A DNA stretch of 64,000 bases, from the NCBI GenBank assembly GCA_028704635.1, contig JAQWFB010000002.1, forward strand, positions 693 to 64,692. Reading direction: 5' to 3'. The position numbers were made by a program, and so were the translations under genes. The stretch comes from Candidatus Shapirobacteria bacterium. GTDB taxonomy: Bacteria > Patescibacteriota > Microgenomatia > UBA12405. The notes under the pieces are model-generated. The model did not search any database. It saw nothing but the letters and a program-made list of their open reading frames with translations, and was not told the DNA's origin. This document shows positions 11,670 through 59,920 of this stretch, one piece after another; position 1 is the first letter of the stretch, and the number at the start of each line of letters is the position of its first letter.

Positions 11670-13688
11670 ATGAAGTCCCTTACTAAGCCAATCCATTTTT
11701 TGTTTTTGGCTCTTGTTTTTTTTACTCCTTTTATTTTCACCCAATCAAATTCTGAGCTTTTTGAATTACCAAAAATGTATTTCGTTTATCTTTTAACCAC
11801 TTTAATAACTACCTTTCATTTAATTAATGTTATCCAAAAAAAAGCTCCTTTTCGCAAAAAAACCTTTTTAGATATTCCCATTCTTCTCTTTTTTATTTCC
11901 CAAGTAATTTCCACTTATTATTCCATTGACCCCCATACTTCTTTTTTCGGTTACTACTCTCGTCTTAATGGCGGTCTTTTATCATTGATTTGTTATCTTC
12001 TTCTCTATTTTATTTTATCCGTTTATATTGACTCAGATTTTAAAAATAAAATTATTAATTTTTCCCTACTTTCGGCATTTTTAGTTTCAATTTATGCCAT
12101 TGCCGAACATTTTGGTATTGATAAAAATTTATGGGTTCAAGACGTCCAATCACGAGTTTTTTCCACTCTTGGTCAACCAAATTGGCTCGCCGCTTATCTT
12201 TGTATTTTTATTCCCTTTTCTATTTTCAAATTTTTTGAATCAATTAAAATTGATTTTGATAAATCCAACAAATTGTACGGGCGAATCATGATTCGCCCCT
12301 ACCTATATTTAATATTAACTTTAATATTTTACATTTCTCTTCTTTTTACTAAATCCAAATCCGGTATCATCGCCTGCCTCATTTCTCTGGCTATTTATTT
12401 TGCAGTTTCTTTTTTTAAAAACAAACCCTTCAGGAAATTATTAATTCTTAATTATTCATTATTAATTATTCTTTCACTTTTAATCACCAATCCCATTAAA
12501 GATAGTTTTATTTCTTTTATAAAAACCAGACATATCGTACCTATAGTCGTAGAAGATAAAATTCCATCATCAAAAATCTTAATAACTTCTAGTGGTGATA
12601 TCCGCAAAATTGTTTGGACGGGAGCCATTGATCTTTGGAAAAAATTCCCCATTTTTGGCACCGGAGTTGAAACTTTCGCCTATTCCTATTACTGGACCCG
12701 CCCAGTCGAACACAACCTCACTTCTGAATGGGATTATCTCTACAACAAAGCCCACAATGAATATATTAATTATCTCGCCACCACCGGCACAGTCGGCTTT
12801 ACTACCTATTGCTTTTTCATCATCTCCGTTTTATTTTTCTCATTAAAGTCTCCCTTGTCAAAGGGAAATTTAGAGGGATTGAATTTAGTCGTCCTGGCCA
12901 GCTTTTCCAGCATATTAATAACTAATTTTGCCGGTTTTTCAGTTGTTACCACTTCGCTCTTCTTCTTTCTTCTCCCCACCCTTTTAAATCCAGATCAGGA
13001 AATTAAAGTAGAGACGTTGCATACAACGTCTCTACGTAAATTTTTAGTTATCCCAATAATTATCATCAGTTTATTCCTAATTAAAAAAACAATTTTCTTT
13101 TACATCGCCGACATCGCCTACAATCAATCCGAAAAATACGATTCTCAAAATGATTATCAAACTGCTCTTTCTTTCGCTCAAACTAGCCATCAACTAAATC
13201 CAAGCGAACCGCTCTACATTGACAAATTAGCCACTATTTACTCAAAAATTGCTCTAAACACCGGCAAACAAGAATATATCGACCAAGCCATCGATTATTC
13301 CGATCTAACCATAAAAATCTCCCCTGCCAACATTAATTTTTGGAAACAACGCGCCCAAGATTATCTTTACCTCTCCGGCATTGATACTAAATATTTCTCT
13401 GTTTCTATCACCGCTCTAACCAACGCCGCCAGTCTCGCTCCCACTGATCCTAAAATTTTCTATTCCCTTGGCCAATTTTTAGAAACAGCCAGTCTTACAG
13501 ACCAAGCCATTCCTTATTACCAAAAAGCCATTGAATTAAAATCAAATTATGATTATGCCTATTTCGCTCTCGGCAAAATTTATCTTTCCAAAAAAGAAAA
13601 AGCGTTAGCCAAAGAAAATCTCCAAAAAACCATTGATTATTCCTATCCCACCAACACTGAAGCAGAAAAATTACTGAAAAGTCTTTAA
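11670..13688 (+). CDS. O-antigen ligase (Wzy_C) family polytopic membrane protein fused to C-terminal TPR repeats. Contains three in-frame short repeat insertions
   Basis: Multiple TM helices, NEYINYLATTG-type Wzy_C loop. C-terminal TPR-like (AIPYYQKAIELKSNYDYAYFALGKIY). Confidence 0.75.
   Translation: MKSLTKPIHFLFLALVFFTPFIFTQSNSELFELPKMYFVYLLTTLITTFHLINVIQKKAPFRKKTFLDIPILLFFISQVISTYYSIDPHTSFFGYYSRLNGGLLSLICYLLLYFILSVYIDSDFKNKIINFSLLSAFLVSIYAIAEHFGIDKNLWVQDVQSRVFSTLGQPNWLAAYLCIFIPFSIFKFFESIKIDFDKSNKLYGRIMIRPYLYLILTLIFYISLLFTKSKSGIIACLISLAIYFAVSFFKNKPFRKLLILNYSLLIILSLLITNPIKDSFISFIKTRHIVPIVVEDKIPSSKILITSSGDIRKIVWTGAIDLWKKFPIFGTGVETFAYSYYWTRPVEHNLTSEWDYLYNKAHNEYINYLATTGTVGFTTYCFFIISVLFFSLKSPLSKGNLEGLNLVVLASFSSILITNFAGFSVVTTSLFFFLLPTLLNPDQEIKVETLHTTSLRKFLVIPIIIISLFLIKKTIFFYIADIAYNQSEKYDSQNDYQTALSFAQTSHQLNPSEPLYIDKLATIYSKIALNTGKQEYIDQAIDYSDLTIKISPANINFWKQRAQDYLYLSGIDTKYFSVSITALTNAASLAPTDPKIFYSLGQFLETASLTDQAIPYYQKAIELKSNYDYAYFALGKIYLSKKEKALAKENLQKTIDYSYPTNTEAEKLLKSL
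12275..12303 (-). repeat. REP-like GC-rich palindrome copy (ggtaggggcgaatcatgattcgcccgtac), inserted in-frame in the ligase gene (encodes YGRIMIRPY)
   Basis: Identical core to 59094-59117 and near-identical to 59011-59035 and 23783-23808. Confidence 0.8.
12847..12880 (+). repeat. Short repeat agtctcccttgtcaaaggga..agagggatt, in-frame inside ligase gene. Second copy at 48531-48589
   Basis: 20/20 identical core plus shared agagggatt tail seen directly. Confidence 0.7.
13008..13035 (+). repeat. Palindrome gtagagacgttg-cata-caacgtctctac in-frame inside ligase gene (encodes KVETLHTTSLR). Related copy at 37540-37569
   Basis: 12-bp perfect inverted arms. Shares 11-nt arm with 37540 copy. Confidence 0.75.
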
Positions 13689-18269: not shown

Positions 18270-18342
18270 GCCTGAGTAGCTCAGTCGGTAGAGCAACTCT
18301 CTTGTAAAGAGTAGGTCGTGAGTTCGAATCCCACCTCAGGCT
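18270..18342 (+). tRNA. tRNA-Thr (anticodon TGT)
   Basis: Cloverleaf folded by hand: acceptor GCCTGAG, anticodon loop CTTGTAA, T-loop TTCGAAT. Confidence 0.85.
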
Positions 18343-18377
18343 CATTTTTTATTAATATTTTGGTAAAATATCAGCAC

Positions 18378-18450
18378 GCCCGGATAGCTCAGTTGGTAGA
18401 GCATCCCCTTGGTAAGGGGAAGGTCATGAATTCGAGTTTCATTCCGGGCT
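18378..18450 (+). tRNA. tRNA-Thr (anticodon GGT)
   Basis: Acceptor GCCCGGA/TCCGGGC, anticodon loop TTGGTAA. Confidence 0.85.
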
Positions 18451-18548
18451 CAATACAGTTATAAAGTTTGTCAAGTTTTTAAAGTTGTAAAGTTGTTTTA
18501 AATTTTAGCTTGATGAACTTGATAAACTTTTGACTTTATAAACTCAAT

Positions 18549-18632
18549 TGGAGGGGTGCTCCGAATGGTAAGGAACTTGTTTTGAAAACAAGCGTCAGCA
18601 ATGACATGCAGGTTCGACTCCTGTCCCCTCCG
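18549..18632 (+). tRNA. tRNA-Ser (anticodon TGA), long variable arm
   Basis: Acceptor GGAGGGG/CCCCTCC, anticodon loop TTTGAAA, 17-nt variable arm, T-loop TTCGACT. Confidence 0.8.
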
Positions 18633-20396: not shown

Positions 20397-21539
20397 ATGG
20401 ACTATTCTCAAGCTTCACTCGAAAAACACAAACTTACCAAAGGTAAAATTGCCATCGCCAGCAAATTTGGCGAGGTCAAAACTAAAGATGATTTAAGCAT
20501 CGCCTACACTCCTGGCGTCGCCGCCGTTTCCACTCTTTTGGCCCAACATCCAGAATTAGCCTCCGAATATTCCATTAAATCCAACACTGTCGCTGTCGTT
20601 TCGGATGGCTCGGCTGTTCTCGGCCTTGGCAATATCGGCCCTTTTGGTGCCCTACCAGTTATGGAAGGCAAAGCTTTACTTTTCAAAGAATTTGCCAATG
20701 TCGATGCTTTTCCCATTGTTTTAGAAACCCAAGACCCTGATGAAATTATCAACATCGTCAAAAATATCGCTCCCGGTTTTGGTGGTATTAATTTAGAAGA
20801 TTTTGCCGCCCCTAAGTGTTTCTACATTGAAAATAAATTAAAAGAAATTTTAAATATCCCTGTCATGCACGATGATCAACATGGCACTGCCATTGTTGTT
20901 TTAGCCGCTCTAATTAACGCTCTAAAATTGACCAACCAAACCAAAGACGATACTAAAATTGTCATTTGTGGCGCTGGTGCTGCTGGCACCGCTATTGCTA
21001 AACTATTAAGTCTTTATGGTTTTAAAGATTTAATAATTGTCGATTCTAAGGGAATAATTAGCAAAGACCGTCTCGATTTGAATGACGCCAAAAAAGAATT
21101 TTTAACTTTCACTAATCCTCAGAATTTAAATGGTGATTTAAGCCAAGCCATGATCGGCCGACATGTTTTCATTGGTGTCAGCGGACCAAATATTGCCACC
21201 GGCGACATGGTAAAAACCATGGGTGAAAAACCAATTATTTTTACCATGGCCAATCCTGTCCCAGAAATAGATCCTACTGCTGCCAAAGAAGCTGGTGCTT
21301 TTATTATTGGTACCGGTCGCAGTGATCAACCAAATCAAATCAATAATGTCCTCGCCTTTCCTGGTGTTTTCAGAGGTGCTTTAGATAATAAAGTCAGCAA
21401 AATAACCGATCAAATGAAACTAGCTGCCGCTCAGGCCTTAGCCGATTATGTTAAAGAAACTGAATTAACCGTTGATTTTATTTTGCCCAGCCCTCTCAAT
21501 AAAGGCGTCGTCAATGTTATCGCCTCAGCCATTAAATAA
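20397..21539 (+). CDS. NAD(P)-dependent malic enzyme (short, about 380 aa form)
   Basis: AYTPGVA, GxGxxG (CGAGAAG), malic enzyme N- and NAD-domains. Confidence 0.85.
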   Translation: MDYSQASLEKHKLTKGKIAIASKFGEVKTKDDLSIAYTPGVAAVSTLLAQHPELASEYSIKSNTVAVVSDGSAVLGLGNIGPFGALPVMEGKALLFKEFANVDAFPIVLETQDPDEIINIVKNIAPGFGGINLEDFAAPKCFYIENKLKEILNIPVMHDDQHGTAIVVLAALINALKLTNQTKDDTKIVICGAGAAGTAIAKLLSLYGFKDLIIVDSKGIISKDRLDLNDAKKEFLTFTNPQNLNGDLSQAMIGRHVFIGVSGPNIATGDMVKTMGEKPIIFTMANPVPEIDPTAAKEAGAFIIGTGRSDQPNQINNVLAFPGVFRGALDNKVSKITDQMKLAAAQALADYVKETELTVDFILPSPLNKGVVNVIASAIK

Positions 21540-23782: not shown

Positions 23783-23808
23783 TGTAGGGGCGGACCATGT
23801 GTCCGCCC
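23783..23808 (+). repeat. REP-family variant palindrome tgtaggggcggaccatgtgtccgccc plus T-run, acting as rpmG terminator
   Basis: Shares tgtaggggcg...catg...cgccc frame with copies at 12275, 59011, 59094. Confidence 0.65.
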
Positions 23809-23818
23809 TTTTTTGTAT

Positions 23819-24736
23819 ATGAAACAACAGATTCAGTCAGCCCTAGAAAACATCTACATTTCTCCCTTGGAATTATGTAATTTGAATTGTCGCGCCTGCT
23901 ACACCAATAAAACTAAAAATATTCTTTCTAATCAACAAATTCTCGACTTCGTCGAAAAATATAATAGATTTTTAAAAAAAGATTTCAAAGATACAATTTT
24001 TTATGATATCGAACGTGGTGACACATTCGCCGAGCATAAAAAATTTGTATCGAGAAATCTAAAATTAAAATCTATTCTTTTTTGTGGTGGCGAAGTCTTC
24101 ACTCTCCCTGATTTCCCCGATTTAATCAACACTTTGATCCAAAAAGACATATTTATCACCATTATTACTAACGGCACCATCGACTGTATCAATAAAATCA
24201 ATGATCCAAAAAATTGTCAGCTCTTAGTTTCACTCGACGGTCCCAAAGAAATTCACGACCGAAATCGTGGTCCTGGTAATTTTGATAAAACAATAAAATT
24301 TATTCAACACGCCCAACAACTTGGTTTCCCAATCGAAATTATGTTTCTCATTACCAAAGATTCCTATCCTTACAAAGGTTTTTTTAATGTTTTTGGTCTG
24401 CCAAAAACCTATTTAACTGATCGAAAAATGTCATTGTCAAAAAATCAACTTTTAGATATCAAAAAAAATTATCAAACCTTCCCAAATAAAAATTTTGGCT
24501 GCTCTCAACTCTCGCTTCAATCCTCCGGCATCATCACCGGCTGTTGTGAATCTTCCCTACGATTAGGCACAATTAATGATGATCCTGCAACTTATGTCGC
24601 CAATTTTATAAAATCTTTGTCCAAATGTTCCATTTGTCAAAAATGTAACGGTTGTTGCGACCCCAATTATCTTTGTGGTTACAAAACCGAATTAAATCTC
24701 AAAAATTGCCAAGATGTTGTACAATCATTCAAATGA
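23819..24736 (+). CDS. Radical SAM enzyme with C-terminal SPASM/twitch-like Cys cluster (start at MKQQ)
   Basis: CNLNCRACY (CxxxCxxC) at residues about 22-30. GGE SAM motif. C-terminal CSICQKCNGCCDPNYLC cluster. Stop overlaps next start (ATGA). Confidence 0.75.
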   Translation: MKQQIQSALENIYISPLELCNLNCRACYTNKTKNILSNQQILDFVEKYNRFLKKDFKDTIFYDIERGDTFAEHKKFVSRNLKLKSILFCGGEVFTLPDFPDLINTLIQKDIFITIITNGTIDCINKINDPKNCQLLVSLDGPKEIHDRNRGPGNFDKTIKFIQHAQQLGFPIEIMFLITKDSYPYKGFFNVFGLPKTYLTDRKMSLSKNQLLDIKKNYQTFPNKNFGCSQLSLQSSGIITGCCESSLRLGTINDDPATYVANFIKSLSKCSICQKCNGCCDPNYLCGYKTELNLKNCQDVVQSFK

Positions 24737-25743
24737 ATTTTCAAACCCAATTTATTAAAGAATGGACAGTTCAAGCTTTGCGAAATTATTTTATTGATAA
24801 TAATTTTCATGAGGTCGAAACTCCAACTCTTCTTGCCAAAATCCCCATCGAACCAAATCTCTACGCTTTAAAAACTCATTGGTCCCAAAAAGATTTTGAT
24901 TTTTATTTACCCACCTCACCCGAGTCTTCACTCAAAAAATTAATTTCTCAAGGCATTGGTAATTGTTTTGCCATCAGTAAAGTTTTTCGAGATTTAGAAG
25001 ATATCGGCCCCACTCACAACCTCGAATTTGCCATGTTGGAATGGTATGAAATGGACAAAAATTATCGCAACATCGCCGAAACCACCCAAAAATTAGTCTT
25101 AGAAATTTACCACAGTATCCTTAAAAAACAAAACAAAAGCATTACTAATTTACTCACCTACCAAAATCAAACCATCAACCTTTCCACTCCTTGGTATTTT
25201 TTCACTCTTCAAGAATTATTTCAAAAATTTGCCAACATCGATTTGTCCAAAAATTTAACGACCAACGAAATTATTGCCACCGCCAAATCAAAAGGTTACA
25301 ACACTGATGGTATTACCACCTGGGAACCGCTCTACACTCAAATTTTTATCAATGAAATTGAATCTAAATTACCTCAAGACAAACCAGTCTTTATTTTAGA
25401 TTATCCCACTCAACTTTCTCCTCTTTGCCTCCCCTGTCCCAATAATCCAGGTTTCAGTCAACGATTTGAATTTTATATCGGTGGCATGGAAATCGGCAAC
25501 GCTTATTCTGAATTAAACGATTCAAAAATTTTAACAGACAATTTTGAAACTGAAACCAAATTTAGACGAGATAATAATTTACCAATTCATCCCTACGATC
25601 AAGAATTTATCGATGCCTGCGGTCAACTTCCTACCTGTGCCGGCATCGGTTTAGGTGTCGATCGTCTGGCTATGCTTTTCGCCGACACTACTCAAATTGA
25701 AGATGTCATTTATTTCCCCACTTCAAAATTTATTGAAAATTAA
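24733..25743 (+). CDS. EpmA/GenX/PoxA-like class II lysyl-tRNA-synthetase paralog lacking anticodon-binding domain (start at MNFQ, ATGA-coupled to rSAM)
   Basis: Class II motifs LEFAMLEWYE, RFEFYIGGMEIGNAYSELND, GIGLGVDRLAMLF closely matching E. coli EpmA. 336 aa. Confidence 0.7.
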   Translation: MNFQTQFIKEWTVQALRNYFIDNNFHEVETPTLLAKIPIEPNLYALKTHWSQKDFDFYLPTSPESSLKKLISQGIGNCFAISKVFRDLEDIGPTHNLEFAMLEWYEMDKNYRNIAETTQKLVLEIYHSILKKQNKSITNLLTYQNQTINLSTPWYFFTLQELFQKFANIDLSKNLTTNEIIATAKSKGYNTDGITTWEPLYTQIFINEIESKLPQDKPVFILDYPTQLSPLCLPCPNNPGFSQRFEFYIGGMEIGNAYSELNDSKILTDNFETETKFRRDNNLPIHPYDQEFIDACGQLPTCAGIGLGVDRLAMLFADTTQIEDVIYFPTSKFIEN

Positions 25744-29060: not shown

Positions 29061-29131
29061 CAGGTCCGCCAGGAGTCGAACCTGGAAAAGCAGTTTTGGA
29101 GACTGCTGTGATACCATTTCACCACAGACCT
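29061..29131 (-). tRNA. tRNA-Trp (anticodon CCA)
   Basis: Hand-folded: acceptor AGGTCTG/CGGACCT (one G-U), anticodon loop CTCCAAA, T-arm CCAGG-TTCGACT-CCTGG. Confidence 0.75.
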
Positions 29132-29143
29132 AAGAACGAAAAG

Positions 29144-29216
29144 TGGACCCAAGGGGACTCGAACCCCTGACCTTCCCCATGCCATGGGGACGCGCTACCA
29201 ACTACGCTATGGGCCC
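29144..29216 (-). tRNA. tRNA-Ala (anticodon GGC) with G3-U70
   Basis: Acceptor GGGCCCA/TGGGTCC giving G3:U70 identity pair. Anticodon loop ATGGCAT. T-loop TTCGAGT. Confidence 0.75.
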
Positions 29217-37502: not shown

Positions 37503-37531
37503 AAAGGTCAGGCATACCTGACCTTTTTTTG
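37503..37531 (+). terminator. Intrinsic terminator aggtcaggcatacctgacc-T7
   Basis: 8-bp stem and 7 T. Confidence 0.7.
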
Positions 37532-37539
37532 TTTAATCA

Positions 37540-37569
37540 TGTAGAGACGTTCTGCAGAACGTCTCTACA
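37540..37569. repeat. Perfect palindrome tgtagagacgttc-tgca-gaacgtctctaca. Same family as 13008-13035
   Basis: 13-bp perfect arms. Shared gtagagacgtt core. Confidence 0.75.
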
Positions 37570-42599: not shown

Positions 42600-43472
42600 T
42601 CATTTACACAAAGGGCACTTATCACCAGAATAATAACAATCACATTTTTCACAATGTTTCAAACCATCAACATTTCCTAGTCCGTAAACCAACTCTCCAT
42701 TTATACCCACTGACACAATTATTCCCATTCTATTATTTTCACTTCCCCAAGAACTTCCATGCCCCCCTTCAGTATTAATTTCATTCCCCATTCTTGCCAT
42801 TAAGCTTTCAAATAAATAATTATCACCATCTGCTCTTTCCATGGCCATTCTTACATCTTTTTCCATTTTTATTTTATTTTCAGTATCCTTACCTTCCTCA
42901 ATAAAATCCCAAATTTCCATAAACTCAGGCATTATTTTTTTACATTCATATATCCAATCATCAATCTCTTCAATCCTAAATCCTATCGGTTGTTGCCTTA
43001 CGCTTTCCTTATTATTAATTGAACCTATAGATTTTCCATTATTTTTTAACAATCTCTTAGCCAATTCAAACGATTCATTTTCATCACAAAGCAAGGGAAC
43101 ATGTCTCCCATAAACCACCCATTCATTTTTTCCAAAAACAGGAAATTCTATATTCAATCTTCCCTCTTTGTAAACATTTCCACCATCATCAGGACTTATC
43201 CAAACAATCAAATTGTATCCCTTTTTACCTAAATCAAAAACATTAATTGTTGCTTCTTTTTCTGCTTCTGAATGTTTATTATATTCCCAATTATCTTTTT
43301 CTATTTTACTTTCTACATAAAGATCTGAAATATTTATTCTATTTCTTAAATCTAAATCATTAGCCCTCTCCTCCAAAAACGCTCCTGCAATTTCACTAAG
43401 AGAATTTTGATTAATATCGTAAAACTTTTTATTTTCTAAATTCATATACTTTTGCTCGAAAGTTTTGGTCAT
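42600..43472 (-). CDS. Hypothetical protein with C-terminal zinc ribbon (HCEKCDCYYSGDKCPLC), last gene of nrd operon
   Basis: 290 aa ORF. CxxC...CxxC terminus. Co-directional with nrdJ and ATR gene. Confidence 0.5.
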   Translation of the reverse strand: MTKTFEQKYMNLENKKFYDINQNSLSEIAGAFLEERANDLDLRNRINISDLYVESKIEKDNWEYNKHSEAEKEATINVFDLGKKGYNLIVWISPDDGGNVYKEGRLNIEFPVFGKNEWVVYGRHVPLLCDENESFELAKRLLKNNGKSIGSINNKESVRQQPIGFRIEEIDDWIYECKKIMPEFMEIWDFIEEGKDTENKIKMEKDVRMAMERADGDNYLFESLMARMGNEINTEGGHGSSWGSENNRMGIIVSVGINGELVYGLGNVDGLKHCEKCDCYYSGDKCPLCK

Positions 43473-43534
43473 CCGGCTCTACGGTTGCGGCACAGCCTAG
43501 GAATTACACCTAGTTCCCCATTAATAATTATTTT

Positions 43535-44035
43535 TTAATTAAACTTTGACCTCCACATCCAATTTAAAAAGGATGATAATTTATTAAAATATTTCAATAC
43601 ATTTTCATCAAATTTCTCTTTTTTCTTTTCTTCTCTATCCCATTTTAAAGTCACCACCCTCCTTTCCGCTTCTCGACAATCAGTTCGACAAATATTAATT
43701 CTCGATTCAACTTCATTTTCACCAGGTATTAAAAAATCGTTTAAATCCTTAACTCTTTTTTCATATTCTTCCGAATCACTTTCTATTTCTTCAATTCTTT
43801 TCTCTCCGTTTTTCCAATCTTTACCAACATAAAGACTACTCATAATTTCATTTAAATCTTTTTCTATTTGAAGAATTTTTTCATTTTCTTCTTTTTCCTC
43901 TATCACCACTCTAGTCCACCCCAACCGGGCCTGAAACTTATCAATCGCTCCAACTGCTTCCACAAAAGGAGAATCTTTACTCACACTTAAATTGCATTCT
44001 CCTGATGTAAAACCTTTATCTCCTCTTTCACTCAT
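43535..44035 (-). CDS. PduO-type ATP:cob(I)alamin adenosyltransferase (MMAB family)
   Basis: N-terminus RGDKGFTSG...VSKDSPFVEAVGAIDKFQARLG matches TGDKGxTSL..VxKDDxRVEAxGxxDELN signature. Confidence 0.6.
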   Translation of the reverse strand: MSERGDKGFTSGECNLSVSKDSPFVEAVGAIDKFQARLGWTRVVIEEKEENEKILQIEKDLNEIMSSLYVGKDWKNGEKRIEEIESDSEEYEKRVKDLNDFLIPGENEVESRINICRTDCREAERRVVTLKWDREEKKKEKFDENVLKYFNKLSSFLNWMWRSKFN

Positions 44036-53704: not shown

Positions 53705-54781
53705 CTACTTAATTATATCAAACTTTTCTTTAAAAAATCTTACATCTTGTTTAACCACTTTATCCCAATCTTGTTTTAAATTATGATCATTTTCCTCTCT
53801 AACATCCAAAATTACTTCTTTTCCCAACTCTTTTAATCTGTTTTGCAATTCTGATTGCCATTCCACTTTGCACCACACATCCGCCGTCCCCTGATGAATC
53901 AAAATCGGTGCCCCTACCCAATTATAAAAATTATCAATCGAATAAAGTTTACTGTCATATTCTTTTTCAAATTCATCAATTCGTGTTTTTACAATTTTCC
54001 CCGATTCACTATTTTCATCCATTGTGTCCAAGACACTGTTTGGAAAAGGATTAGTCATCGGCGCCCACAACACTGTTGGATAATTTCCTCCTGTAACTTC
54101 CAAAACCGAAATTGCAATCTGTCCACCATTACTGTGCGCCCAAATTCCAATTTTATTCGGATCCACAAAATCCAATTTTTTAACCGATTCAATTAAATCC
54201 AACACTCCCATTGGCTTCTCAAATCTCGCCTCTAAAATATCTTTTGATTCTCCATCGGACAAACCAAATCCTAAAAAATCTAAACTCACAGTTACAAAAC
54301 CATTTCTAGTCAATTCATCCGCCACTTTCCAACTACCAGAACCAATAAAATATCCCTCACTATCAGCAAAACCTCTAATCATAATAATCGCCGATGATTT
54401 TTTATTTTCATACTCTACTGGCAAATTCATCATTCCGCTTATCTTTTTTCCATTACTTTCAAAACTAATTGCTCTACTTTCAAAATCAAAAGTTTTTCCT
54501 TCCAAATCTCCTCTTTTTACTAATTCTTTTCTAGCTTCCATCACAGTTAAAACTTGACCTATCGTCTTAATTTCTGATGCTTTATTTATTCTTGTTTTTA
54601 AATTTTCAAAATTATATTGCGCCAAATAGCCAACATTTTTTTCTACCGCCGTCACTCCCACACCTGCACTCGCAGCAGAAATCATTTTTTTATCTTCTTT
54701 TGAAACCCACCATCCATCCGCCCAAGCCCAAAAACCCAAAGCTATTAATACAAAAAAAATAATAATAAATTTTTTTTTCAT
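53705..54781 (-). CDS. Exported alpha/beta hydrolase (S9/dienelactone-hydrolase-like)
   Basis: N-terminal TM. GIWAHSNGG nucleophile elbow. C-terminal His. Confidence 0.65.
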   Translation of the reverse strand: MKKKFIIIFFVLIALGFWAWADGWWVSKEDKKMISAASAGVGVTAVEKNVGYLAQYNFENLKTRINKASEIKTIGQVLTVMEARKELVKRGDLEGKTFDFESRAISFESNGKKISGMMNLPVEYENKKSSAIIMIRGFADSEGYFIGSGSWKVADELTRNGFVTVSLDFLGFGLSDGESKDILEARFEKPMGVLDLIESVKKLDFVDPNKIGIWAHSNGGQIAISVLEVTGGNYPTVLWAPMTNPFPNSVLDTMDENSESGKIVKTRIDEFEKEYDSKLYSIDNFYNWVGAPILIHQGTADVWCKVEWQSELQNRLKELGKEVILDVREENDHNLKQDWDKVVKQDVRFFKEKFDIIK

Positions 54782-58819: not shown

Positions 58820-58847
58820 AAATCCCCCTTTTTAGGGGGATTTTTTA
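58820..58847 (+). terminator. Intrinsic terminator atccccc-ttttt-aggggga-T6
   Basis: 7-bp stem, T-run. Confidence 0.75.
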
Positions 58848-59010
58848 TTGTAACTAATCGGATTATCTCTAATATATTTTCTGACCATTAAATATTCTTT
58901 TTCATTGCGAATAATTCGTTCGTAATAATTTCGTTGCCATAATTTAATTCCAATTTCTTTTGATGTGTTCATTTTAAAATACCCAATAATATTTGATAAT
59001 AATGACCTGT

Positions 59011-59035
59011 GTAGGGGCGATTCATGAATCGCCCC
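59011..59035 (+). repeat. REP-like palindrome gtaggggcgattcatgaatcgcccc (inside transposase remnant)
   Basis: Perfect 11-bp arms. Confidence 0.8.
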
Positions 59036-59093
59036 ATTTAAAACATCGACATCATTAATATTAATTTCATTATTTATTTTTTCATTCATTTTG

Positions 59094-59117
59094 GGCGAAT
59101 CATGATTCGCCCCTACA
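59094..59117 (-). repeat. REP-like palindrome gtaggggcgaatcatgattcgccc in inverted orientation to 59011 copy (REP doublet)
   Basis: Identical to 12275-12303 copy. Confidence 0.8.
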
Positions 59118-59382
59118 ATTTTAATGATCATATGCAAATGGTCTGGCATAATTTGATAACCATCGATTTTAACGTCAAAACGATTTATTAAATTTAATAA
59201 CCAAATTTTACATACCAACCATTTTTATTTAAATCCATTTTTCCATTTTCAATTTCCCCAAATATTTCATTTCGATTTTGCACACAAATCGTTACAAAAT
59301 AATATCCATTTTTTGAATAATCAAACCCATCCAATCTAATCGATATTCTGTGATATTTCACACATTAATGATATCAAAAAAT

Positions 59383-59862
59383 TTATAACTTTTCTAAAAA
59401 ATCACCCCAACCGATCTTCGTATAAGTTTCTTTACATTCCTTTTCTAAAACTCCACCCACCACTTCTGGTTCATCACTAAAAAAAGGCTTAATTTTAGAA
59501 AGCCCTTTATCTTGCAAAATATTCCATTTGCTTTTACCACCCATATTAGGCGATCTAACCCCAAAAACCACTTTTTTGAAATGCAATTCTCTCATCATAA
59601 AAGAACACATCGGACAAGGTTCACAGTTTGAATAAATTTCACAATCCTTTAAATCTTTACTTTTAAGTTTCTTTTGGGCTTTTCTCATTGCCATTATTTC
59701 TGCATGACTGGTAACATCACATTTTTTTTCATTAGCATTAGTCACCTTAACAATTATTTTTCCATTTTTAACAATCAAACTTCCAAAAGGTGCTTCGCCT
59801 TTTTTAACTGACTGTTCAGCCAATTCTATACATTTTTTGATATAAAACTCATTATTTTTCAT
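59383..59862 (-). CDS. tadA: tRNA-specific adenosine deaminase / CDA-fold nucleoside deaminase
   Basis: HAEIMAMRKA and CEPCPMCSFMM zinc motifs. Confidence 0.7.
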   Translation of the reverse strand: MKNNEFYIKKCIELAEQSVKKGEAPFGSLIVKNGKIIVKVTNANEKKCDVTSHAEIMAMRKAQKKLKSKDLKDCEIYSNCEPCPMCSFMMRELHFKKVVFGVRSPNMGGKSKWNILQDKGLSKIKPFFSDEPEVVGGVLEKECKETYTKIGWGDFLEKL

Positions 59863-59890
59863 TTAGTATATTTTACCTCCAACACCAACA

Positions 59891-59920
59891 AAAAGCCCTC
59901 CGAAATTTCAGAGGGCTTTT
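59891..59920 (-). terminator. Intrinsic terminator agccctc-cgaaatttca-gagggct (serves minus-strand small gene)
   Basis: 7-bp stem. T/A runs both sides. Confidence 0.55.

Follow-up and report, generated by a model that had tools for sequence, protein, structure and literature searches.

The 64,000-nucleotide stretch of Candidatus Shapirobacteria DNA analyzed here (contig JAQWFB010000002.1 of assembly GCA_028704635.1, positions 693 to 64,692; hereafter the window) harbors two families of short, G+C-rich palindromes tagged with a GTAG tetranucleotide, together with one gene for a REP-associated tyrosine transposase (RAYT), an enzyme type linked to repetitive extragenic palindromes (REPs). The palindromes lie within an O-antigen-ligase-like gene, behind rpmG, between two convergent genes and within the RAYT gene itself (Table 1). 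Four of them, here termed family A, had been pointed out in an original prediction made from the letters and their open reading frames (ORFs), and all were recovered within 1 base of the positions given there. The residence of two of these copies, near 59 kb, inside a RAYT-type gene and the existence of a second GTAG palindrome family, termed family B, go beyond that prediction.

Table 1 Features of the palindrome families and of their host genes in the window.
Feature	Position	Strand	Details
O-antigen-ligase domain (Wzy_C) and TPR repeats, 672 aa	11670-13688	+	Pfam Wzy_C, E=1.4e-16
REP family A in ligase-like gene	12275-12302	-	- strand GTAGGGGCGAATCATGATTCGCCCGTAC; -11 kcal/mol, z -5.4
REP family B, double-foot	13008-13035	.	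GTAGAGACGTTGCATACAACGTCTCTAC; -13.3 kcal/mol, z -7.6; in frame in ligase gene, codes VETLHTTSL
REP family A, sub-family variant	23784-23814	+	GTAGGGGCGGAC-catgt-GTCCGCCC then TTTTTT; -10.6 kcal/mol, z -5.1
REP family B	37541-37568	.	GTAGAGACGTTCTGCAGAACGTCTCTAC; -13.8 kcal/mol, z -7.6; intergenic, between convergent genes
RAYT / TnpA_REP-like HUH-Y1 gene	58832-59361	-	Pfam Y1_Tnp; ORFs 59194-59361 and 58832-59218
RAYT and deaminase segment, 1067 bp	58846-59912	.	absent from L213-L215; bracketed by two terminator-like hairpins
Internal REP 2	59011-59035	+ (GTAG)	coding strand GGGGCGATTCATGAATCGCCCCTAC; codes GAIHESPL
A+T-rich spacer, 57 bases	59036-59092	-	codes (K)MNEKINNEININDVDVLN; length varies among orthologues
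Internal REP 1	59093-59116	-	coding strand GTAGGGGCGAATCATGATTCGCCC; codes VGANHDSP directly after the HuH strand

The window was scanned with the core pattern GGGCG-N3-CATG-N3-CGCCC, using 100 dinucleotide-preserving shuffles of the 64-kb sequence as control. Exact matches lie at 12279-12298, 59015-59034 and 59093-59112, a fourth site with two mismatches lies at 23788-23807, and none of the 100 shuffles gave any core match. A looser frame, GGGCG-N(4-16)-CGCCC, returned the same four sites and no others, where 0.01 were expected. The GTAG tetranucleotide stands directly at the stem foot in all four copies, and GTAGGGGCG is found exactly at 12294-12302 (-), 23784-23792 (+), 59011-59019 (+) and 59108-59116 (-). 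Folded as single-stranded DNA, every copy gives a hairpin of -8.7 to -11 kcal/mol (z -4.0 to -5.4 relative to shuffles), with perfect arms of 8-11 bp in a scan for perfect G+C-rich hairpins and of 10 bp in the three exact copies; because the G+C content of the window is ~33%, such palindromes stand out. The stems begin with GGG and rest on three G-C pairs, and their interiors are variable yet complementary, features that, together with the GTAG foot, support the initial interpretation of the palindromes as REPs. Counting both families, the 64 kb contain four A copies and two B copies, where about 0.01-0.04 would be expected. Two near-matches, TTAGGGGCG (20807-20815) and GTAGGGGCA (53909-53917), lack palindromic symmetry and were taken as chance occurrences.

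The pattern gtaggggcg-N3-catg-N3-cgccc, proposed earlier for a genome-wide search, describes three of the four copies exactly; the copy at 23784, already noted as a variant with gacc/gtcc arms, departs from the strict N3-CATG-N3 interior and constitutes a separate sub-family with the stem GGGCGGAC and a 5-nt loop. This copy begins 12 nt past the stop codon of L33 (rpmG) and was called terminator-like, in line with the role of rpmG terminator suggested for it before. It alone combines a G+C-rich hairpin with a T run after a gene, the other copies having no T run or lying inside ORFs, and a GAC/GTC-type REP like it is also found inside another RAYT gene. An Rfam scan of the whole window yielded no RNA family overlapping any palindrome. 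A CRISPR array, a tandem repeat, a DNA-uptake sequence and a restriction site were considered and rejected, since the copies occur singly and dispersed, have a GTAG foot and are linked to a RAYT.

Family B (GTAGAGACG...CGTCTCTAC, or GTAGAGACGTT...AACGTCTCTAC as read by the hairpin scan) carries GTAG on both sides of the stem and comprises the second palindrome of the ligase-like gene and the copy at 37541, adjoined by a separate terminator hairpin at 37503-37526. In the Shapirobacteria loci sampled, family B is commoner than family A and occurs with many different complementary interiors, further places being L001:13634-13661 and 18423-18451, L125:3903-3982, L136:3578-3660 and L160:1504, 12641 and 12759.

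The original prediction had suggested looking for a RAYT elsewhere; the gene turned out to lie within the window, hosting two of the four copies, albeit in a frameshifted state. A TTT run at 59217-59219 is one T short, which is the only frame difference from the syntenic locus of a related metagenome assembly (L001, 80-95% DNA identity) that encodes an intact orthologue of 176 aa (P0001, 95% identical). This one base aside, the RAYT DNA is 98% identical to that of the intact orthologue and all catalytic residues are kept; lying in a homopolymer, the frameshift could be an assembly error. Exact-protein look-ups of both RAYT fragments and of the neighboring deaminase found none on record. In L001, which stems from a related ENA assembly, RuvA is called as two overlapping ORFs (L001:5134-5707), suggesting indel errors or frameshifts in that assembly too.

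For classification, NCBIfam and PDB-sequence searches were performed with the frame-repaired RAYT protein, and P0001 was used for AlphaFold modeling. The best family was NCBIfam REP_Tyr_transpos (NF047646, E=4.7e-16, 59 bits), whereas the IS200 family (NF033573) reached E=1e-3 and 19 bits against a cut-off of 55. The best PDB sequence match was E. coli TnpA_REP (4er8) at about 17% identity, and the same structure headed the fold search (4er8_A, E=2e-7, template modeling score 0.58-0.62), followed by the IS200, ISDra2 and IS608 transposases; the model has a mean predicted local distance difference test (pLDDT) score of 81, with a core above 90. A HuH motif (HLH) is encoded at 59132-59140 and the catalytic-tyrosine motif YIRDNP, of the form YxxxNP, at 58859-58876; residues H75, H77, Y163 and N167 are invariant across the homologue alignments. 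RAYT-profile matches within the window are confined to this one gene with its two ORFs, and neither a tnpB gene nor end hairpins are present around it in the window.

The two family A copies of the RAYT gene form an inverted pair with GTAG pointing outward, located in the loop between the HuH and tyrosine motifs, so that the coding strand reads ...HLHMIIKI-VGANHDSP-KMNEKINNEININDVDVLN-GAIHESPL-H.... The 129 nt from 59000 to 59128 are able to form a single long hairpin (-24.9 kcal/mol, z -5.4), and the corresponding REP-coded residues 83-120, spacer included, have low confidence and no secondary structure in the model. Conservation of the pair was assessed in 116 listed RAYT homologues with recognizable HuH and Y motifs. 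A V[GR][ATVI]...[P/A/Q] motif, which is the reading of a GTAG foot typified by VGAIHESP, follows HuH after 2-12 residues in 81 of them, and a second REP-type peptide precedes helix alphaC in 77; the position directly after the HuH strand is thus constant in about 70% of homologues, with a changing sequence type. The internal peptides differ by lineage (AIHESP, ANHDSP, AHHDAP, ADLRVCP, ATLVVAQ, AGSARP, AGLVPA), yet palindrome and GTAG foot were retained wherever homologue DNA was fetched, and the pair is conserved in the DNA of orthologues with 95%, 75% and 68% identity. The HuH-Tyr distance is 86 aa here, with a median of 87 and a range of 58-139 among homologues. In a type I restriction-modification operon, one homologue (P0072, L220:1031-1603) occupies the place between the hsdS-like and the hsdR-like gene; its internal REPs are GTAGGGGCAGACCTACGTGTCTGCCC and GGGCGAACACATAGGTTCGCCCCTAT.

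A protein 100% identical to the ligase-like one is annotated in NCBI metagenome-assembled genomes of Candidatus Shapirobacteria, and both REPs of the ligase-like gene are unchanged in two further assemblies. Its family A copy reads in frame as YGRIMIRPY on the + strand, exactly as had been noted. By inspection of the protein sequence, the REP-A and REP-B peptides each fall between hydrophobic segments and would form loops between membrane helices. The three reading frames of the 28-mer differ: frame 1 is open with an intact GTAG (VGANHDSPL or VGAIHESPL), frame 2 starts at a TAG stop and frame 3 includes a TGA. Both RAYT copies use frame 1, the only frame open with an intact GTAG. The ligase uses frame 2 with a coding-strand foot of GTAC (Tyr) instead of GTAG, its orthologues having GTAC or GTAT; a GTAG would create an in-frame TAG stop here, and the GTAC foot probably reflects selection for an open frame after insertion, which would also account for the recurrence of such peptides in databases.

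Ligase orthologues differ in whether they have the REP-coded peptides and in the sequence of these. In loop 1, where the family A copy resides, REP-bearing orthologues read YGRIMIRPY, YGRGVTRPY, YGRATARPY, YGRIAIRPY or YGRGMTRPY, and the DNA of five loci (window, L132, L133, L135 and L140) consists of palindromes or near-palindromes with differing interiors in a common frame GTAY-GGGCG...CGCCC-CTAC, the arms of L132 being mismatched at two positions. Many similarly distant orthologues lack the loop 1 REP and read NSKTLLHKSYF. Filled and empty states are interleaved on a neighbor-joining tree without support values, and recombination could have contributed to this pattern. REP-less alleles (L134:7285, L136:1529) read ...AAAACTCTACTT... 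where the REP-bearing window (12225-12326) reads ...CGCCCCTACTT...; as judged from this single site with diverged flanks, CTAC may already have stood at the insertion point before the REP arrived. In loop 2, the family B insert occurs in two of the 60 orthologues listed (P0121, which is the protein of the window itself, and P0135). Elsewhere among the orthologues this place is taken by another in-frame palindromic insert, CPTCPVKGRW... (coding CPTCPVKGRWFRNSGTGW, including GTGGTTCCGCAACAGCGGAACC), found at L137:11323-11342 and L136:2281-2300 and represented by P0134, P0136, P0141, P0144, P0146 and P0155.

The motif is not unique to the four loci of the window, as it recurs at other sites in relatives and its core is present in other genomes. 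An exact scan of species-representative genomes for the 20-mer GGGCGAWTCATGAWTCGCCC gave at least 120 contig stretches (L002-L121), in which 124 matches were analyzed. The 80 titles listed include Dehalococcoidia, Ignavibacteria, Clostridia, Acidobacteria, Deltaproteobacteria, Planctomycetes, Omnitrophota and others, and no genome of the candidate phyla radiation (CPR) is among them; contig G+C of the core-bearing stretches ranges from 34% to 68%. Outside RAYT ORFs lie 121 of the 124 listed matches. GTAG flanks 151 of 248 arms, and 48 of the 124 listed matches are double-foot. The core mostly occurs as the 28-mer GTAGGGGCGATTCATGAATCGCCCCTAC across very different phyla, an unusual sequence conservation for a REP.

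We further compared the RAYT locus and the REP sites among relatives. Both in the window and in L001 the RAYT gene is convergent with rplL and adjoins a gene of the cytidine/dCMP-deaminase family (59383-59862). The gene for a 75%-identical RAYT (P0002) again lies beside rplL, with pyrG on the other side, and the same place in 95%- and 75%-identity lineages suggests vertical inheritance. Three relatives (L213-L215), with 91-94% identity to the window on either side, lack the RAYT and deaminase segment and show one hairpin at the empty junction, a pattern compatible with a single-copy gene that is passed on vertically and occasionally lost. As for dispersed copies, the REP terminator 3' of rpmG is found in seven loci (window, L125-L129 and L131), is present without GTAG in L122 and is absent from L123, L124 and L130. 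L125-L131 contain a cluster resembling a bacterial interspersed mosaic element (BIME), with three family B REPs between radical-SAM and tRNA-synthetase-like genes (L125:3840-4000); positions 24736-24740 of the window are the empty site for this cluster, and L123 has ~100 nt of unrelated sequence there. Two family B copies of L001 likewise face unrelated sequence in the window.

Most of these properties have a counterpart in subclass 2.4 of the TnpA_REP proteins (Quentin et al. 2018, PMC6006769), which is identical with group 4 of the RAYTs in Bertels et al. 2017 (PMC5581495). In-frame REPs between HuH and Y within tnpA_REP genes are described as a striking trait unique to this subclass, along with a variable insert separating beta3 from alphaC, a HuH-Y distance with a median of 88, a REP stem based on three G-C pairs and “double-foot” REPs of the form GT[AG]G...C[TC]AC (PMC6006769). 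The window RAYT shares with it the HUH/Y1 core of IS200-like fold, the in-frame internal REPs and the enlarged, variable HuH-Tyr spacing; the three G-C stem base, the lack of a C-terminal extension domain and the scatter over many phyla are likewise common to both systems, and the copies at 12275, 13008 and 37541 are fully or nearly double-foot. The host differs, being a CPR (Patescibacteria) bacterium here and mainly Cyanobacteria and Bacteroidetes in that study (PMC6006769). Compared with the classical REPtron layout, the window RAYT has no outside REPs, its neighbors being the deaminase gene and an unrelated terminator hairpin, and is frameshifted.

The survey of Di Nocera et al. 2013 (PMC3733652) describes a GTAG REP superfamily with complementary sub-family interiors, GTAG-outward dimers and intragenic REPs. 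The window REPs share with it the 20-40 bp palindrome, the terminal GTAG, the alternative complementary stem interiors, the preferred sites after genes and between convergent genes and the GTAG-outward dimers, and some superfamily copies also lie in frame within ORFs and code for 9-30 extra residues, as here; that survey contains no CPR genomes and lacks the exact sequence found here, and the copy number here is low. Rickettsia palindromic elements (RPEs), cited there, are in-frame palindromes tolerated in functional genes like the present ones, but they are of the CGTC type or longer, with RPE-1 a longer palindromic insertion interrupting other Rickettsia genes, and the passage citing them states no RAYT link. 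The E. coli REP/BIME system offers the closest sequence and fold match to the RAYT, again as a single-copy gene (4er8; PMC3479197). E. coli TnpA_REP recognizes a GTAG foot plus hairpin as single-stranded DNA, and foot and hairpin are shared by the window REPs (PMC3479197; PMC8266576). In E. coli, however, imperfect, bulged palindromes lie on the flanks of the gene and the enzyme ends in a C-terminal tail, whereas the palindromes of the window are perfect and intragenic and code for a 38-residue loop. Finally, like the internal pair, Pseudomonas REPINs (Bertels and Rainey 2011, PMC3116915) are two inverted REPs with a short spacer, able to fold into one long hairpin; in contrast to REPINs, the other window copies are singlets and the doublet is coding sequence. 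A literature search with the exact DNA and peptide strings gave unrelated primer matches only, and within the limited literature covered no paper on REP/RAYT systems in CPR bacteria was found. The REP/RAYT arrangement as such is already described, though as far as we found not from a CPR genome.

Collectively, we interpret the palindromes as GTAG-tagged REPs whose cognate enzyme is most likely the single RAYT of the window, a member of subclass 2.4 / group 4, and assign this reading a probability of roughly 0.8. By analogy to E. coli TnpA_REP and IS200/IS605 transposases, the RAYT would bind the hairpin folded from single-stranded DNA along with the GTAG foot on its 5' side, and would then cut and rejoin single-stranded DNA, thereby duplicating REPs or shifting them to new positions; it would in this way be the agent that moves the REPs. 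Three TnpA_REPs cleave and strand-transfer single-stranded REPs (Corneloup et al. 2021, PMC8266576). Copies would persist where they are harmless or useful, for instance as the rpmG terminator (23784), in a gap between convergent genes (37541) or in stop-free loops of a membrane protein (12275, 13008). The dispersed window copies match the RAYT-internal ones. A further, tentative proposal, which may well prove wrong, is that the internal pair is a fixed, co-evolving part of the gene, so that the transposase brings along a template for its own substrate and forms a self-contained unit. If so, horizontal transfer of a single RAYT gene would seed a new REP family, which would explain why the identical 28-mer is found at 34-68% G+C in many phyla and also in a CPR genome of ~33% G+C.

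Several observations weigh against a RAYT-driven REP system. The window RAYT is frameshifted and may be inactive here, its 59 bits for REP_Tyr_transpos lie below the equivalog cut-off of 80, and the biochemistry cited above covers group 2 and 3 enzymes, not subclass 2.4 / group 4 (PMC8266576). Copies are few, with the four A and two B copies being a count for the window only, and no REP flanks the RAYT gene from outside, the internal copies being the only ones within 1 kb. A family B-type peptide (VET...SL) was found in 0 of the 116 listed RAYT homologues with recognizable HuH and Y motifs. In addition, at most polymorphic sites a diverged stretch is replaced rather than cleanly interrupted by an insertion; hence no target rule can be derived, and loss, recombination or in-situ evolution could account for part of the turnover pattern.

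The weightiest alternative holds that the family was mobile in an ancestor, that the RAYT is now a pseudogene and that the copies are merely inherited and decaying. The frameshift, the few copies, the degenerate GTAC foot in the ligase and the missing RAYT segment in L213-L215 speak for such relics. Against them, the gene is, one frame-breaking base aside, 98% identical in DNA to an intact orthologue and has every catalytic residue in place, the break is in a homopolymer and could stem from assembly, and the three exact copies have perfect 10-bp arms; we regard this scenario as unlikely, though to be taken seriously. A far smaller chance is left to a conventional IS200/IS605 transposase with the palindromes as its subterminal end hairpins or derived miniature inverted-repeat transposable elements. 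Fold and HuH/Y chemistry are indeed common with IS608 and ISDra2 TnpA, the RAYT and deaminase segment is an indel between strains, and group 4 belongs to the groups whose flanking 16-mers are only slightly enriched (PMC5581495). This explanation is nevertheless highly improbable given the IS200 score far below its cut-off, the one copy in the window and the lack of tnpB, and because the hairpins lie inside the ORF, with none at left or right ends, the indel is bracketed by terminator hairpins instead of REPs and the gene keeps its place beside rplL in lineages of 95% and 75% identity.

Slightly less credible again is the idea that the palindromes are ordinary host signals, namely intrinsic terminators or mRNA-stabilizing stem-loops that are immobile and alike by convergence or local duplication. 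The copy at 23784 is a textbook hairpin plus T run after rpmG, that at 37541 sits between convergent genes, and other unrelated terminator hairpins occur in the window; yet three of four family A copies and one of two in family B sit within ORFs and lack a T run, identical 20-mers stand 46 kb apart with a conserved GTAG foot, the GTAG-footed 20-mer recurs in many phyla, and copies are linked to a RAYT gene. The least probable of the explanations considered is that VGANHDSP and GAIHESPL are protein motifs needed by the transposase, the other palindromes being RAYT scraps or chance. While peptides do recur at the same place in most homologues, they differ widely (from AIHESP to ADLRVCP, ATLVVAQ, AGSARP and AGLVPA) with palindrome and GTAG foot kept wherever DNA was fetched, the stretch is predicted to be disordered, the ligase copy is read in another frame and has flanks without RAYT similarity, and nearly all listed matches in other genomes lie outside RAYT ORFs.

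If the palindromes are REPs served by the RAYT, a REP/RAYT system is present and turning over in the streamlined genome of a CPR bacterium, Candidatus Shapirobacteria, where short palindromes alter terminators and supply a membrane protein with additional peptide loops; the accepted view of REPs is not changed by this. For annotation, VGAxHxSPL, YGRxxxRPY and VETxxxxSL in low-G+C genomes would be read as REP footprints and not as protein motifs, and P0001 provides an intact enzyme with perfect-palindrome substrates for assays of this RAYT group.

Apart from the palindromes, the window contains an AdoCbl-II (cobalamin) riboswitch at 43458-43535 (-), detected with Rfam at 43.9 bits against a gathering score of 36.5; tRNAs, clustered at 18270-18632 (+) and 29061-29216 (-), were the only other RNA families found. 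Across the window the GC skew stays strongly negative (-0.13 to -0.47 in 4-kb bins), with a + strand that is very C-rich throughout.

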